The notes beneath the pieces were generated by a model that searched no databases, was not told the origin of the DNA, and worked only from the letters and a program-made list of their open reading frames with translations. A stretch of 24,339 nucleotides of DNA from Candidatus Moranbacteria bacterium CG_4_8_14_3_um_filter_34_16. GTDB lineage: Bacteria; Patescibacteriota; Minisyncoccia; Moranbacterales; UBA2206. The DNA lies in assembly GCA_002782345.1 (NCBI GenBank), contig PFHO01000019.1, positions 1 to 24,339 of the forward strand, written 5' to 3'. The position numbers were made by a program, and so were the translations under genes. Of the stretch, positions 8,482-16,658 are shown in pieces. The first letter of the stretch is position 1, and every line of letters starts with the position of its first letter.

Positions 8482-8621
8482 AAAAAAATAAGAGCGGTAA
8501 TACTAATGCATATGGCGGATGCCTAGACATCAAAAAGCGATGAAGGACGTAGCTAGTTGCGAAAAGCTTCGGGGAGGTGCTGAGCAACCTTTGATCCGAA
8601 GATATCCAAATGGGGCAACCC

Positions 8622-8809
8622 AACCCATTCTTCACTTCGTTCAGAATGTAATTTCTAATTTTCAATTTACAATTTTCAAATAAATTCTAATCTCAAATTT
8701 TTAGAAATTGAAACATTGAGAATTATTTATAAAATTAAAAATTTTAAATTAAAAAATTTGTAAAGTTTATTTTAATGGCAAAATTTCTGGATAAAGTGAA
8801 GAATGGGTT
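8622..8809 (+). other. Insert/expansion in 23S helix 9 (188 nt versus ~18 nt in E. coli)
   Basis: Perfect 16-bp basal stem AACCCATTCTTCACTT / AAGTGAAGAATGGGTT, lying between GGGGCAACCC and ATATTAACTGAATTCATAGG; AT-rich heptamer core. Confidence 0.93.
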
Positions 8810-8933
8810 AATATTAACTGAATTCATAGGTTAATATAGCGTACCCGGCGAATTGAAACATCTTAGTAGCCGGAGAAAAAGAAAACTAATGTGATTCCCT
8901 AAGTAGTGGCGAGCGAAAGGGGAAAAGTCTAAA

Positions 8934-9113
8934 CCAGCTTCACCTCACTGCGTTCGGTGAAGAATTCTAGATTTTAAATTCTAAATTTTAAATCAAATCT
9001 AAATTTTCAAATGATTGAATTTTAAAAATTTGTTCATTTGGTCATTGAAAATTCGTTTAAAATTGAAAATTTAAAATTGAAAATTCTGTCCGAGCATAGC
9101 GAGGTGCAGCTGG
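8934..9113 (+). other. Insert/expansion at ~E. coli nt 270 (H15/H16 region), 180 nt
   Basis: CCAGCTTCACCTCACTGCGTTCGG / CCGAGCATAGCGAGGTGCAGCTGG stem between AAACC and GGGGTTGCGAGG; AT-rich heptamer core. Confidence 0.9.
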
Positions 9114-9413
9114 GGTTGCGAGGTAATTTTACTCGTTTAATCGGGGCGATGAATTGTTTGTTAGCAGAACGTTTTGGAAAAAACGACCAAAGAAAGTGAA
9201 AGTCTTGTAAGCGAAAACAAACAACATTCGTGAAATTATTCTCAAGTAGGGCGGGACCGGAGAAATCCCGTTTGAATCTGGGGTCACTATAACTCCAAGA
9301 CTAAATATTTTTGATGATCGATAGCGAACAAGTACCGTGAGGGAAAGGTGAAAAGTATCCCGATGAGGGAGATGAAATAGTATCTGAAACCATATGCTAA
9401 CGAAGAGTAGGAG

Positions 9414-9576
9414 CCGTATTTTTCACTAACGTCCAGAATAAATTTTTAATTTCCAATTTTTAATTTTATAAATAATTTTTAATGTTTTGATTTTATAAAC
9501 ATTAGAAATTAGAAAATTATTTAAAAATTGTAAAAATTAAAAATTATAAAATTCGGAGCGTAAGTGAAGAATACGG
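9414..9576 (+). other. Insert/expansion in 23S helix 25, 163 nt
   Basis: CCGTATTTTTCACT / AGTGAAGAATACGG stem between GTAGGAG and TGACTGCGTGCTTTTTGTA. Confidence 0.93.
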
Positions 9577-10191
9577 TGACTGCGTGCTTTTTGTAGAACG
9601 ATCCAGCGAGTTAGTTTTATACGGCTTGCTTAATCCGTTAATAGCGGAGGAGGCGTAGTGAAAGCGAGCCTTAACCGGCGATTTGTCGTATGGACTAGAC
9701 CCGAAGCCAGGCGAGCTATTTATGAGCAGGGTGAATCTTGAGTAACATCAAGAGGAGGCCCGAACCCACCGGCCGTGCAACACCGGGGGATGACTTGTGA
9801 ATAGAGGAGAAATTCCAATCGAGCTTGGCGATAGCTGGTTCTTCCCGAAATAGCTTGAGGGCTAGCGTTAGGTAACTATCTGTCGGAGGTAGAGCGACTG
9901 AATGAGAATTCGCGGTTCGCCGTAGGTTTCTCAACCAAACTCCGAATTCCGTCAGAACTATCCTAGCAGTCAGAAATCCGGGGCTAAGCTCGGATCTCAA
10001 AAGGGGAAAAGCCCATGATCGCAATCTAAGGTCCCTAATTTATGTTAAGTGGAAAAGGAAGTAAGATTTCTTATACAGCTAGGAGGTTGGCTCAGAGGCA
10101 GCCATCCTTTAAAGAGTGCGTAATAGCTCACTAGTCTAGAGATTTCGCGCCGAAAATGTAACGGGGCTAAAACATAATACCGAAGATGCGG

Positions 10192-10362
10192 GCTACTATT
10201 CTTCACTAACGTTCAGAATGAAATTTTAAAGACTAAATTTAAAATTTTAAATCAAGTCTAAATGAATAAATTTTTAAAATTTAAACATTGGGAAATTTAA
10301 AATTCAATTAAAATTTATAATTTAAAATTGAAAATTTCCGAGCGATAGCGAAGGATGGTAGC
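10192..10362 (+). other. Insert/expansion in 23S helix 45, 171 nt
   Basis: GCTACTATTCTTCACT / AGCGAAGGATGGTAGC stem between CCGAAGATGCGG and GGTAGGGAAGCGTTC. Confidence 0.93.
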
Positions 10363-10881
10363 GGTAGGGAAGCGTTCCATATGCGCTGAAGCGGAATGCG
10401 TGAGCAACCGTGGAGTTTATGGAAGTGAGAATGCTGGAATTAGTAACCGCAATTGGGGTGAGAACCCCCGACACCGAAAGTCTAAGGTTTCCTGGGCAAT
10501 GGCAATCATCTCAGGGTTAGTCGGGCCTAAGGCGAGGCCGAAAGGCGTAGTCGATGGACACACGGTTAATACTCCGTGGCTTTCACGTTATTCGATGGAG
10601 TGACGCATCCTAGTAGTTCTTGCCAATTATTGGATTTTGGTAGGGATATTTAGATGGCGAGACAGGTAAATCCGTTTCGCAATACATCAAGATATTTCTC
10701 TAATTTGTCTTCGGACAGAAAAGAAGAATGAGCAGGGTGCCGGGAAAAGCTTCTAAGATTAGTAGCGTGAGAACCGTACTAAAACCGACACAGGTAGACT
10801 GGGCGAGTAGCCTAAGGTGAACGAGTGAACCTTCGTTAAGGAACTCGGCAAAATAGCGTCCGTAACTTAGGAATAAGGACT

Positions 10882-10967
10882 GCCCGCCGTGTATAGCACA
10901 GAGATTCTAAATTTCAGAAAAATAATTAAAATATAAATTTGGAATTCCCGTGCTATGCGTGGTGGGC
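10882..10967 (+). other. Extended 23S helix 63 with a short AT-rich tip (86 nt)
   Basis: GCCCGCCGTGTATAGCAC / GTGCTATGCGTGGTGGGC stem capped by GATTCTAAATTT...AAATTTGGAATT (about 10903-10947). Confidence 0.8.
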
Positions 10968-11416
10968 CGCAGCTAAAGATATCAAGCGACTGTTTACCAA
11001 AAACACAGGTCTCTGCAAACCCGCAAGGGGATGTATAGGGGCTGACGCCTGACCAGTGCTGGAACGTTAACGGGAGCGGTGCAAGCCAATCCCCGAAGCG
11101 CCAGTGAACGTCAGCGATAACTATAATCGTTCTAAGGTAGCGAAATTCCTTGACAGGTAAGTTCTGTCCCGCATCAAAGGCGTAACGACTTGATAACTGT
11201 CTTAACGAAGAGCTCGGTGAAATTGCAATGACGGTAAAGATGCCGTCGACCTGCAGCAAGACGAAAAGACCCCGTGGAGCTTTACTACAACTTGGTATTG
11301 AGTTTGAGATTATACTGCCTAGAATAGGTGGGAGGCTTTGAAGTTCGTCTTTTGGGATGAACTGAGCCAATAGTGTAATACCACTCTGGATAGTTTTAAA
11401 TTCTAACCCTGGACCG

Positions 11417-11558
11417 TTAAAAGGCAAAAAATTTTCAATTTTCAATTCACGATTTTAAAACAATTTCTAATGATTAAATTTTTTAATTTTAAAATCATTT
11501 AGAAATTGAAAATTGTTTAGAAATTGAAAATTAAAAATTAGAAATTTTTGTTTTTTAC
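11417..11558 (+). other. Insert/expansion in 23S helix 79, ~142 nt
   Basis: Lies within the CCCTGGACCG / CGGTTCGGGG stem preceding GACAGTGCCTGGTGGGTAGTTTGACTGGGG; clearest heptamer array (AATTTTC repeats ... TTAGAAA/TTGAAAA repeats). Confidence 0.93.
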
Positions 11559-11580
11559 CGGTTCGGGGACAGTGCCTGGT

Positions 11581-11626
<46 letters not shown>

Positions 11627-11774
11627 TTTACAAAGGTAGGCTAGGTCCGGATGGAAATCGGGCTGGTAGTGCAAACGCGCAAGCCTGCTTTACTGCGAGA
11701 CTCATAAGTCAATCAGTCACGAAAGTGGAAGTTAGTGAACCGACCATCGCTTATAGGAGCGTGGAAGATCATCA

Positions 11775-11807
<33 letters not shown>

Positions 11808-11832
11808 CCTCCCAAGAGTTCACATCGACGGA

Positions 11833-11893
<61 letters not shown>

Positions 11894-12134
11894 TGGCTGT
11901 TCGCCAATTAAAGTGGTACGCGAGCTGGGTTCAAACCGTCGTGAGACAGGTTGGTCTCCTATCTGCTGTAGGCGTTTATTGCTTGAGAGGATTCTTTCCT
12001 AGTACGAGAGGACCGGAAAGAACAAACCTCTGGTGTACCAGCTGTGGCGCCAGCCGCATTGCTGGGTAGCTAAGTTTGGAAGGGATAACCGCTGAAAGCA
12101 TATAAGCGGGAAGCCCACCTCAAGATTAGGCAAT

Positions 12135-12307
12135 GTCGTGCGAAGCGCGAAAATCCCAATAACCAAAAAACAATAACCAAACAAATTACAATAACTGAAA
12201 TTCAAAATTTCAAACATAATTAAAAAAGTTTGAGATTTGAAAATTGGAATTTGAAATTTATTTGGAATTTGTATCTTGTAATTTGGAATTTACGTGCTTT
12301 GTGCGGC
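12135..12307 (+). other. Insert/expansion in 23S helix 98, 173 nt
   Basis: GTCGTGCGAAGCGCG / CGTGCTTTGTGCGGC stem between CTCAAGATTAGG and CTGGAAGATTACCAGGTTGATAGG; TTGGAAT-type heptamer array at 12230-12289. Confidence 0.92.
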
Positions 12308-12420
12308 TGATTTCCTGGAAGATTACCAGGTTGATAGGTCTCAGGTATAAGCGAAGTGATTCGTTGAGCCAAGAGATACTAATAAATCAAACTTTATCTC
12401 TCTTATTTTTCTCGTTTAGT

Positions 12421-12691: not shown

Positions 12692-12857
12692 GTTTCCGGT
12701 GCTTCTAGCGGTGAGGAAACACGCGATCCCATTCCGAACTCGTTCGTTAAGCTTGCCAGCCCCGATGGTAGCCCGCTCAAATTTTTTAAAATGTTTAGAG
12801 AGATTTCCAAGATTTTGAAGAATTTGAGCGGGTAAGAGTAGGACAGTGCCGGGAACA
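12692..12857 (+). rRNA. rrf: 5S rRNA gene with enlarged helix IV (~165 nt)
   Basis: CCGGT..TAGCGGTGAGGAAACACGCGATCCCATTCCGAACTCG..GTTAAG..CCGATGGTAG ... AAGAGTAGGACAGTGCCGG. Helix I pairing between 12687-12699 and 12849-12861. Ends approximate. Confidence 0.95.
12771..12833 (+). other. Expanded 5S helix IV/loop D (63 nt versus ~19 nt in E. coli)
   Basis: GCCCGCTCAAATTTTTTAAAAT / ATTTTGAAGAATTTGAGCGGGT stem, sitting between GATGGTA and AAGAGTAGG. Confidence 0.92.
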
Positions 12858-15181: not shown

Positions 15182-15616
15182 ATGTTTATTGGAGAGTTTC
15201 AACATTCAATTGATCCTAAAAAAAGATTGGCTGTGCCGAGTAAGTTTCGCGGAGAACTGAAAAGTGGGGTGGTGATTACTCGCGGAATGGATAAATGTTT
15301 GTTTCTTTATCCAGTGAAAGTTTGGAAAAATTTGGCGGAAAAATTAGGAACATTGCCGATGGGGGAAGCCAACACTAGAAGTTTTGTGAGAATTATGTTG
15401 GCGGGAGCGGTAGATTGTGAAATTGACAAACAAGGAAGAATTTTAATTCCAGATTATTTGAAAGAATATGCGTCTCTTTCCAAGAATGTGGTGATTGCGG
15501 GTTTGTATAATCGTTTGGAAATTTGGGACGAAAATAAATGGGAAGAATATAAAAAGAAAGCGGAAAAAAATACCGATGAAATTGCCGAACAGTTGGGGAA
15601 GCTTGGAGTATATTAA
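15182..15616 (+). CDS. mraZ: Division/cell wall cluster transcriptional repressor MraZ
   Basis: MFIGEFQHSIDPKKRLAVP and IDKQGRILIP duplicated AbrB-like motifs; LEIWD. Confidence 0.97.
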   Translation: MFIGEFQHSIDPKKRLAVPSKFRGELKSGVVITRGMDKCLFLYPVKVWKNLAEKLGTLPMGEANTRSFVRIMLAGAVDCEIDKQGRILIPDYLKEYASLSKNVVIAGLYNRLEIWDENKWEEYKKKAEKNTDEIAEQLGKLGVY

Positions 15617-15618
15617 TA

Positions 15619-15704
15619 AATTTTCAATTTTTAAATAATTTTAAATTTTTTTAAATTAAAATTTGAATCATTGGAAATTGTTTGAAAATTAAAAATTGAA
15701 AATT
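15619..15704. repeat. Palindromic heptamer-repeat element, same family as the rRNA insert cores
   Basis: Perfect 16-bp inverted repeat AATTTTCAATTTTTAA / TTAAAAATTGAAAATT. Right arm TTGGAAA-TTGT-TTGAAAA-TTAAAAA-TTGAAAA parallels the H79 insert. Confidence 0.85.
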
Positions 15705-16658
15705 ATGAATTCCAAAGAAATGTCTATTCATAAATCAGTTTTGTTAAAAGAAGTCATTGAAGTTTTGGATATAGAAAAAAATGATATTGTTGTTGACGCA
15801 ACTTTAGGAGGAGGAGGACATAGCTTGGAGATATTGAAAAAGATAGAAAAGGGCGGTCAGCTGATAGCATTTGACGCGGATAGAGAAGCGGTAGAAAGAT
15901 TTGATTTAAAATTAAAAAATGAAAATTTGAAAATTGGAAAGAAAATTTTTTTGGTTAATGAAAACTTTGCGAAGTTGAAGGATGTTTTGTCAAATTTGAA
16001 AATTGATAAGGTGAGCGCGATTTTGGCCGATTTGGGCTGGTCGTCAGATCAATTGATTGGGAAAGGGATTAGTTTTCAAAAAGACGAAAGATTGGATATG
16101 CGACTGAATAAAAATCAAAAATTAACAGCCTATGCGGTGGTTAATCAATATCCAAGAGAAAAATTAAAAAGAGTAATTGAAAAATATGGTGAGGAACGAT
16201 TTGCCGGACGGATCGCCTTTTCAATAATAAAAAGAAGAACAGAGAAAAAAATTGAAACAACCAAGGATTTGGCGGAAATAATTGAGAAAGTGATTGGGAA
16301 AAGATATCGAAATCAAAAAATAAATTCTGCCACTAGAACATTTCAAGCGTTAAGAATTGAAGTTAATGAAGAATTGGATAATTTGGAAATTTTCTTGCGA
16401 TCGTCTATTGAAAAATTGGAAAAAGAAGGTCGATTGGCAGTCATTTCATTTCACTCATTGGAGGATAGGATAGTCAAAAATATTTTTAGGGAAAATGCAA
16501 GGGGATGCATTTGCCCGAAAAGTTTTCCTGTATGTATTTGTGGAAAAGAACCGATTGTTAAGGTGGTAACTTCAAAACCGATAATCCCGAAAATTTTTGA
16601 AATTGAAAAAAATCCGAGAGCCAGAAGTGCCAAGTTAAGAGTGTGTGAAAAAATATAG
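15705..16658 (+). CDS. rsmH: 16S rRNA (cytosine1402-N4)-methyltransferase
   Basis: HKSVLLKEV, VDATLGGGGHS, ADLGWSS, LDMRL, ATRTFQALRIEVNEEL, ISFHSLEDRIVK, NPRARSAKLR. ATG 15705 or 15720 preferred over TTG 15696, which lies inside the repeat. Confidence 0.97.
   Translation: MNSKEMSIHKSVLLKEVIEVLDIEKNDIVVDATLGGGGHSLEILKKIEKGGQLIAFDADREAVERFDLKLKNENLKIGKKIFLVNENFAKLKDVLSNLKIDKVSAILADLGWSSDQLIGKGISFQKDERLDMRLNKNQKLTAYAVVNQYPREKLKRVIEKYGEERFAGRIAFSIIKRRTEKKIETTKDLAEIIEKVIGKRYRNQKINSATRTFQALRIEVNEELDNLEIFLRSSIEKLEKEGRLAVISFHSLEDRIVKNIFRENARGCICPKSFPVCICGKEPIVKVVTSKPIIPKIFEIEKNPRARSAKLRVCEKI

Follow-up and report, generated by a model that had tools for sequence, protein, structure and literature searches.

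The AT-rich insert at the tip of helix 79 (H79) of the 23S rRNA gene analysed here belongs with the rRNA intervening sequences (IVSs), a known class; its heptamer grammar and the link of this grammar to cassettes encoding four-helix-bundle (4HB) proteins are a new aspect. We consider it probable that the H79 insert and its sisters in H9, H15/16, H25, H45 and H98, in the 16S gene and in some intergenic spacers are arms-only members of a family of heptamer-armed 4HB cassettes. Bacterial rRNA IVSs have been known for about three decades, and we know of no explanation of their origin.

The whole stretch of DNA that was analysed (the window, 24,339 nt) is contig C24 of a 95%-complete genome, here called G000, with 819 kb in 76 contigs and a GC content of 33.6%. 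The 23S rRNA gene within it exceeds the length of the bacterial model by about 1 kb due to hairpin inserts at helix tips, and mapping onto the E. coli 23S rRNA placed the AT-rich inserts in H9, H15/16, H25, H45, H63, H79 and H98. The features, with their coordinates in the window, are:

8493..12403, + strand: 23S rRNA gene, 3911 nt (Rfam RF02541, 2363 bits, model positions 1-2925)
8622..8809, + strand: H9 insert, same heptamer grammar as H79 (lag-7 autocorrelation, arm matches)
8937..9113, + strand: H15/16 insert, same heptamer grammar as H79 (lag-7 autocorrelation, arm matches)
9416..9574, + strand: H25 insert, colinear with the arms of ORF-bearing cassettes after removal of the ORF
10192..10362, + strand: H45 insert, same heptamer grammar as H79 (lag-7 autocorrelation, arm match)
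10889..10961, + strand: small insert in the H63 region, net ~67 nt, weaker periodicity with top lag 8
11417..11558, + strand: H79 insert, ORF-less AT-rich hairpin of inverted heptamer arrays (lag-7 autocorrelation, fold, mapping)
11427..11484, + strand: arm on the 5' (left) side of the H79 hairpin, made of AATTTTC-type units (inverted repeat I3, 58 nt)
11492..11549, + strand: arm on the 3' (right) side of the H79 hairpin, made of TTAGAAA, TTGAAAA and TTAAAAA units and including a phase break, TTGT (sequence, inverted repeat)
12135..12307, + strand: H98 insert, built on a TTGGAAT/TTGAAAT variant of the grammar and giving the strongest lag-7 signal (z 5.3)
15619..15704, + strand: free-standing ORF-less heptamer hairpin filling the mraZ-rsmH spacer (blast and pattern scans)

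Group I and group II introns were ruled out, as only the large-subunit and 5S rRNAs reach the Rfam gathering thresholds in the window; neither a 16S gene nor a tRNA was found within it. The 5S rRNA gene lies downstream of the 23S rRNA gene. After the end of its match at 12778 comes an inverted repeat of 24 nt with 88% complementarity (window 12772-12832), which is consistent with the extended 5S helix described in the sequence-only reading of this DNA.

The two arms of the H79 insert are 58 nt long each and 74% complementary, with about 7 nt and no ORF between them. The insert folds into a single long hairpin of -53.4 kcal/mol (z -8.1), a stability that none of 200 shuffled sequences reached. 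According to the Rfam alignment and the mapping onto E. coli, it sits between conserved rRNA blocks in place of the helix-tip loop. The junction reads GTTA on the 5' side and TACC on the 3' side, and inspection of the sequence there revealed no evident target-site duplication. H79 is a surface site at which eukaryotes carry the expansion segment ES31L. The insert has three of the properties by which IVSs are recognised: it takes the place of the loop of a variable 23S helix tip while the flanking rRNA is conserved, the ends pair into an extended double-stranded stem, and presence among relatives is sporadic with turnover.

The sequence-only reading had parsed the H79, H98 and H15/16 inserts into heptamers, had regarded this ordered periodicity as different from generic low complexity and had proposed autocorrelation as a check. 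The parses are found in the sequence exactly as written, and the autocorrelation peak at lag 7 is real: no other lag scores higher in any of the six large cores, with z-values of 2.8, 3.5, 3.2, 3.1, 3.4 and 5.3 against dinucleotide-preserving shuffles, accompanied by lag-14 harmonics and a depletion of lags 3-4. The lag-7 excess of the cores amounts to 0.18-0.25, compared with a mean of -0.01 and a maximum of 0.127 in 436 AT-matched native windows of the same genome (GC ≤ 0.22, taken outside the elements); for H79 alone the values are z 3.4 and an excess of 0.207. Lag-7 periodicity is not general in the AT-rich DNA of this genome. Arrays matching (TTGAAAA)4 at 23 or more of 28 positions occur 19 times, with 0.1-0.7 expected from simulated genomes of Markov order 3 and 5. 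Genome-wide, 19 regions reached a lag-7 excess of at least 0.20; the 23S gene contains six of them, and its 5' flank and the 16S gene have one each.

The genome is a metagenome assembly of 76 contigs, and low-complexity AT-rich sequence might have been mis-assembled or mis-binned into its rRNA gene. We give this explanation hardly any weight, because 65-95% of the sampled words of the 601-nt H79 region are present in 14 separate groundwater/aquifer DNA runs, and because comparable inserts occupy the same H79 junction in 18 of 20 independently assembled relatives. Types and lengths of the latter inserts vary (96-559 nt), and the 23S sites other than H79 are filled in some genomes only.

One heptamer grammar is common to all copies in G000, which are located in six to seven 23S helices, in the 16S gene and in intergenic spacers. 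The 16S gene on contig C70 is 1868 nt long, compared with a model of 1533 positions, and carries an insert of ~190 nt with the same grammar. Between the heptamer arms of this insert (L083, G000:C70:18800-18990) lies a tip formed by a GC-rich palindrome, CCTGCC...GGCAGG, and the H45 insert of the relative G011 (L064) is a heptamer hairpin capped by a very similar GC-rich palindrome. Among protein genes, blast and pattern scans detected the grammar in the mraZ-rsmH spacer, upstream of the RNase III gene on contig C28 (noted at L084:2188-2335, G000:C28:3699-3846) and at a few other junctions. In 30 genomes, the mraZ-rsmH spacer was empty (0-10 nt) in six, contained ORF-less heptamer hairpins in most others and a 4HB ORF in none. 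The filled spacers measure 34-139 nt (window 15616-15705 and L196-L224) and mostly hold a heptamer hairpin or a one-sided array such as the six ACCTAAT units in L205; the right arm of the filler is flush against the rsmH start codon.

On contig C23 of the same genome, AATTTTC-type and TTGAAAA-type arrays bracket an 83-codon 4HB ORF of the TIGR02436/PF05635 family. Its match to TIGR02436 (32.2 bits, cut-off 24) covers the N-terminal half only, and since the C-terminal half runs on in another frame (frameshift) with two in-frame stops, we regard the gene as a pseudogene. The search for a PF05635/TIGR02436 gene between the same arms, suggested in the sequence-only reading, was thereby answered positively: the sole cassette-type gene of G000 is located in this way. 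An intact cassette-type 4HB gene was not found in the 95%-complete genome, and the idea that the inserts are mobilised or bound in trans is left without support. The sole intact member of the PF05635-like family in G000 is the DGR Avd beside a reverse transcriptase on contig C45, and was rejected as a cassette for this reason. This DGR lies at the contig end (L001:96-1818) and gave scores of 65.9 bits for RVT_1, 62.6 bits for bAvd and 70.8 bits for NF033474, the last being under its cut-off of 80. The C23 pseudogene lies between the pilC stop codon and the pilin gene, a junction occupied by a 4HB cassette in four genomes (G000, G023, G018 and G029; loci L002:1279-1723, L013, L014 and L022), and the heptamer units of these cassettes differ (AATTTTC, GAAGAAT, GAAGAAA-like and GTAGAAA).

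Cassettes of this kind are abundant in the order. PF05635 genes above the cut-off were present in 28 of 41 genomes, with up to 13 copies per ~1-Mb genome, and are flanked by inverted arrays of short tandem units of 7-9 nt. Of 60 flanks, 31 had their highest peak at lag 7, and in 19 of 30 pairs the two flanks were significantly inverted-complementary. The statement of the sequence-only reading that 4HB genes elsewhere are often bracketed by inverted heptamer arrays describes the relatives in general, if units of 7-9 nt are allowed for. A full cassette consists of a gene for a PF05635/TIGR02436 protein of ~120 amino acids between two mutually complementary arrays of 7-nt units. The H79 insert has the two mutually inverted arrays of ~7-nt units and lacks the 4HB gene; because no ORF lies between its arms, we call it an arms-only derivative or relative and not a full member of the family.

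The repeat unit is conserved within a 4HB protein subfamily and differs between subfamilies. The 'GRFRG' subfamily, sampled at 78 loci from many CPR phyla, carries TAGCTTN(N)(N) units before the gene and AAGCTA units behind it; the top lag of its flanks was 7, 8 or 9 in 55, 39 and 24 cases, respectively (lag 7, 55 of 156), and AGCT occurs at least six times per 100 nt in 25 of the 78 loci. The C23 pseudogene belongs to another subfamily, characterized by the motif 'NYxEAN', as do the genes of cassettes L029 and L031. Genes of this subfamily were detected in 112 of 201 genomes of the order. At 29 sampled loci their arms are AT-rich and follow the grammar of the G000 rRNA inserts, with AATTTYN units before the gene and NRAAATT units behind it; the top lag was 7 in 44 of 58 flanks and 22 of 29 pairs were inverted-complementary. 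Cassettes whose proteins are at least 50% identical share repeat cores or recurring k-mers to a much greater extent than other pairs (permutation p = 0.0002), and as such pairs are partly orthologous loci, this demonstrates co-inheritance and not necessarily function. The signal is confined to recurring k-mers and to pairs of at least 50% identity; a global Mantel test of protein identity against the Jaccard index of arm 6-mers was not significant (r = -0.04). Cassettes of two protein subfamilies were also found at one orthologous junction, between a glycosyltransferase stop and a UDP-glucose dehydrogenase start (L023, L024, L025), where the arms consist of 9-nt AAAGTYNNT units for one subfamily and of 7-nt AACATNN units for the other. 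Such a pattern points to re-use of the site or replacement of the cassette.

The arms of the inserts and of the cassettes are linked by sequence and by polarity. In a plus-strand-only blast search of the G000 inserts against ORF-oriented cassettes, C23 and L165-L194 among them, 5' halves of inserts matched upstream arms and 3' halves matched downstream arms with nearly no exceptions. Positions 26-43 of the left-arm query of H79 show 100% identity with the C23 upstream arm, and the right arm matches the downstream arm of this cassette with 93% identity over 29 nt, including the TTGT break. The 16S insert is 94% identical to the C23 upstream arm over 31 nt; for this insert and for the right arm of H79, the C23 arms were the best matches. 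The H9 insert follows the same rule, its 5' half matching cassette upstream arms and its 3' half downstream arms. The H45 insert matches the downstream arm of L186 (92% over 38 nt) and the right arm of H98 the downstream arm of L029 (93% over 27 nt). The H25 insert resembles the arms of L165-L171 and L031 on both sides (90-100% over 22-40 nt) and, if the ORF is removed, is colinear with joined upstream and downstream arms at 70-77% identity over ~95-100 nt, including a common TAAATAA/TTATTTA phase-break motif; given the high AT content and low complexity of the arms, this 70-77% carries less weight than the same identity between ordinary sequences. The homology of the H79 arms to those of ORF-bearing members in the same polarity is likewise a homology of AT-rich sequence. 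In the relative G018, both arms of the H25 insert are close to those of cassette L189. A match between cassette arms and insert arms of the same genome was clear only in G000 and G018, where it ranked first, among 15 genomes, with G029 at rank 2-4; as a general rule it was not significant (permutation p 0.05-0.5), in a test weakened by the sampling of one cassette per genome.

The search for an orthologous rRNA insert that still contains an ORF, also proposed in the sequence-only reading, was successful for the 23S gene of one relative out of 20, G040. The insert that this gene has at the same H79 junction is 559 nt long and contains an intact 4HB ORF of 141 amino acids on the rRNA sense strand (PF05635 82.6 bits, TIGR02436 82.5 bits); its arms are of a different unit type from those of the G000 H79 insert. 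An ORF-bearing form, though with arms of another unit type, therefore exists at the very site of the ORF-less insert. Among the hairpin-type inserts of relatives, 21 of 57 had lag 7 as the top lag together with an excess above 0.08, and about half of the H79 inserts of relatives are of a conserved non-periodic hairpin type. ORF-bearing cassettes within rRNA genes were absent from 40 sampled loci. Further large inserts of 240-1530 nt were observed in the 23S genes of relatives (L067, L068, L069, L070, L072, L079, L080, L081) near E. coli positions ~1900-1930, ~2245 and ~2572, in the numbering of a truncated E. coli reference copy, and are probably introns or homing-endonuclease inserts; the 23S gene of G008 spans ~5.9 kb.

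Eukaryotic expansion segments sit at tolerant, surface-exposed helices. The inserts described here occupy sites of the same kind and could be expansion segments themselves, grown in place by replication slippage of AT-rich heptamers and retained in the mature ribosome, with their likeness to cassette arms due to convergence. Heptamer simple repeats are indeed over-represented in bacteria (PMC4692102), and the copy number of the Coxiella heptamer varies among strains (PMC4990558). Nevertheless, we disfavour this explanation as very improbable: none of the 436 AT-matched native windows has a comparable lag-7 signal, inserts and cassette arms have motifs and phase breaks (TTGT, TAAATAA) in common and in the right polarity, the same elements are found in the 16S gene and between protein genes, and the insert of G040 bears an ORF at the same junction.

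A more substantial alternative concerns the order of events. The heptamer hairpin could be the basic element, dispersed like REP or MITE-like repeats and spreading gene-free, with the 4HB ORF as optional cargo of its loop, so that the rRNA inserts never had a gene. At some sites, hairpins without an ORF are by far the more frequent form; G000 has at least eight ORF-less copies in rRNA genes and several intergenic ones against one pseudogene cassette, and at the mraZ-rsmH junction most of the 30 genomes have the hairpin and none has the ORF, which fits this explanation as well as a loss of the ORF. Near-identical inserts also occur in different helices of different genera: the H9 insert of G011 (L064) and the H45 insert of G000 (window 10192-10362) are nearly the same, including the TTCTTCACTAACGTTCAGAAT basal module, and therefore represent the same element. 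On the other hand, the co-variation of unit cores with the 4HB subfamily across phyla is hard to explain with a random passenger gene and implies that gene and arms belong together. Moreover, the C23 gene is decaying between intact arms, as reported for the reductive evolution of the Coxiella element (PMC4990558), which favours ORF loss. A non-systematic look revealed no transposase, target-site duplication or other engine by which a gene-free hairpin would spread. On balance, we regard a hairpin that came first as rather unlikely.

We therefore return to inserts that are arms-only members of the cassette family. They would have kept both cassette arms with their orientation to transcription unchanged and a short loop in the place of the gene, and the arms, once transcribed, would pair into an AU-rich stem of ~60 bp that extends the tip of H79. 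Whether the inserts lost an ORF or never had one we judge to be about even. The proposal that they are empty derivatives of a 4HB cassette hence stands in part: periodicity, arm homology and the ORF of G040 speak for the relationship and would fit either direction of descent, ORF loss or hairpin first.

The AU-rich stem would be a likely substrate of RNase III by analogy with the IVSs of Coxiella, Salmonella and Leptospira, and cleavage would remove the insert and leave the 23S rRNA in pieces. We estimate the chances of excision by RNase III to be about even. The RNase III gene is present in G000 (contig C28, 3012-3674; 238 bits). In E. coli, rnc is autoregulated via cleavage of a hairpin in its own leader, and a similar loop at the heptamer hairpin upstream of the G000 gene would, by analogy, mark heptamer hairpins as RNase III substrates. 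A search for RNA runs containing the H79 insert found none; the RNA runs found with the 601-nt H79 stretch had only about a quarter of its words, probably from conserved rRNA of relatives.

We know of no function of 4HB proteins outside the DGR Avd. It is conceivable, if doubtful, that each 4HB subfamily recognises its own repeat core, so that gene and arms may form a self-recognising module and the gene-less rRNA hairpins may be orphan sites. In such a module, AATTT-type units may be paired with 'NYxEAN' proteins and TAGCT-type units with 'GRFRG' proteins, and the protein would handle its own hairpin in processing, protection or movement. As an idea only, the period of 7 nt (or 8 nt) may have been selected since it provides stop codons in all three frames to ribosomes entering the cassette from either side. 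Three-frame stops reading inward were found at frequencies of 0.66 vs 0.20 (upstream, sense) and 0.52 vs 0.20 (downstream, antisense) for 'GRFRG' and 0.62 vs 0.40 for 'NYxEAN'; the other orientations showed no enrichment, and the 9-nt arrays do not fit.

CPR bacteria have hundreds of short unclassified rRNA inserts (PMC11270868). One class of them is now tied by sequence to a definable cassette, a 4HB gene with inverted heptamer arms. In the same lineage this cassette abounds between ordinary genes, and the tie offers a lead on the source of rRNA intervening sequences. AT-rich hairpins that might pass for 'junk' become an element family with testable RNase III processing, 4HB-protein binding and gain and loss at fixed junctions. 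For annotators, it is a caution that CPR rRNA genes can carry ~1 kb of heptamer-hairpin inserts. New in our study are arms-only copies inside rRNA that match a specific protein subfamily, a single grammar for every copy in a genome, and a counterpart with an ORF at the same helix junction. In a literature search, we found no paper that generalises the inverted-heptamer architecture or ties ORF-less rRNA inserts to it.

IVSs similar to that of Coxiella are known from Leptospira, Brucella and Xanthomonas, and short ORF-less IVSs in H25 or H45 from Salmonella, Campylobacter and Helicobacter. In the helix-45 IVS of Coxiella burnetii, three tandem GACAGAT heptamers, variable in number among strains, precede the S23p ORF, and RNase III cuts at the first heptamer repeat (PMC4990558). 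Like the Coxiella IVS, the H79 insert forms a stem and sits at the tip of a variable 23S helix. The Coxiella IVS combines heptamers 5' of a 4HB ORF, variable copy number, a decaying ORF and RNase III cuts within the repeats; the H79 insert, in contrast, lacks an ORF, lies in H79 instead of H45 or H25, and has long AT-rich arrays on both sides. Moreover, one family is spread here over the 16S gene, spacers and six to seven 23S helices of a single genome, and excision, demonstrated for Coxiella, is only predicted. A survey of CPR rRNA genes described 22 PF05635-encoding inserts and many short ORF-less, uncharacterised ones, which were suggested to be probably ordinary IVSs (PMC11270868). With these short inserts, common and unclassified in CPR, and with the short ORF-less IVSs, the H79 insert shares a length of 100-200 nt, the lack of an ORF, a hairpin at a helix tip and sporadic occurrence among relatives; it differs from the reported ones by its 7-nt grammar and by arms that match those of a specific 4HB subfamily.

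In being short, dispersed, hairpin-forming, non-coding and situated at gene junctions, the elements also resemble REP/BIME and MITE-like repeats, from which they are set apart by their tandem periodicity of 7 nt inside the element and by being linked to a 4HB gene; a RAYT or transposase partner was not noticed in a non-systematic look. Heptamer simple-repeat arrays between ORFs have been described without a gene family being named (PMC4692102), and 4HB genes have been found wedged inside cas operons (PMC3936711). The intergenic heptamer-armed 4HB cassettes (C23, L165-L194, L085-L164) have the same inverted 7-nt arrays as the H79 insert and obey the same orientation rule, and the difference is that the H79 insert has the arms without the gene and carries them inside an rRNA.
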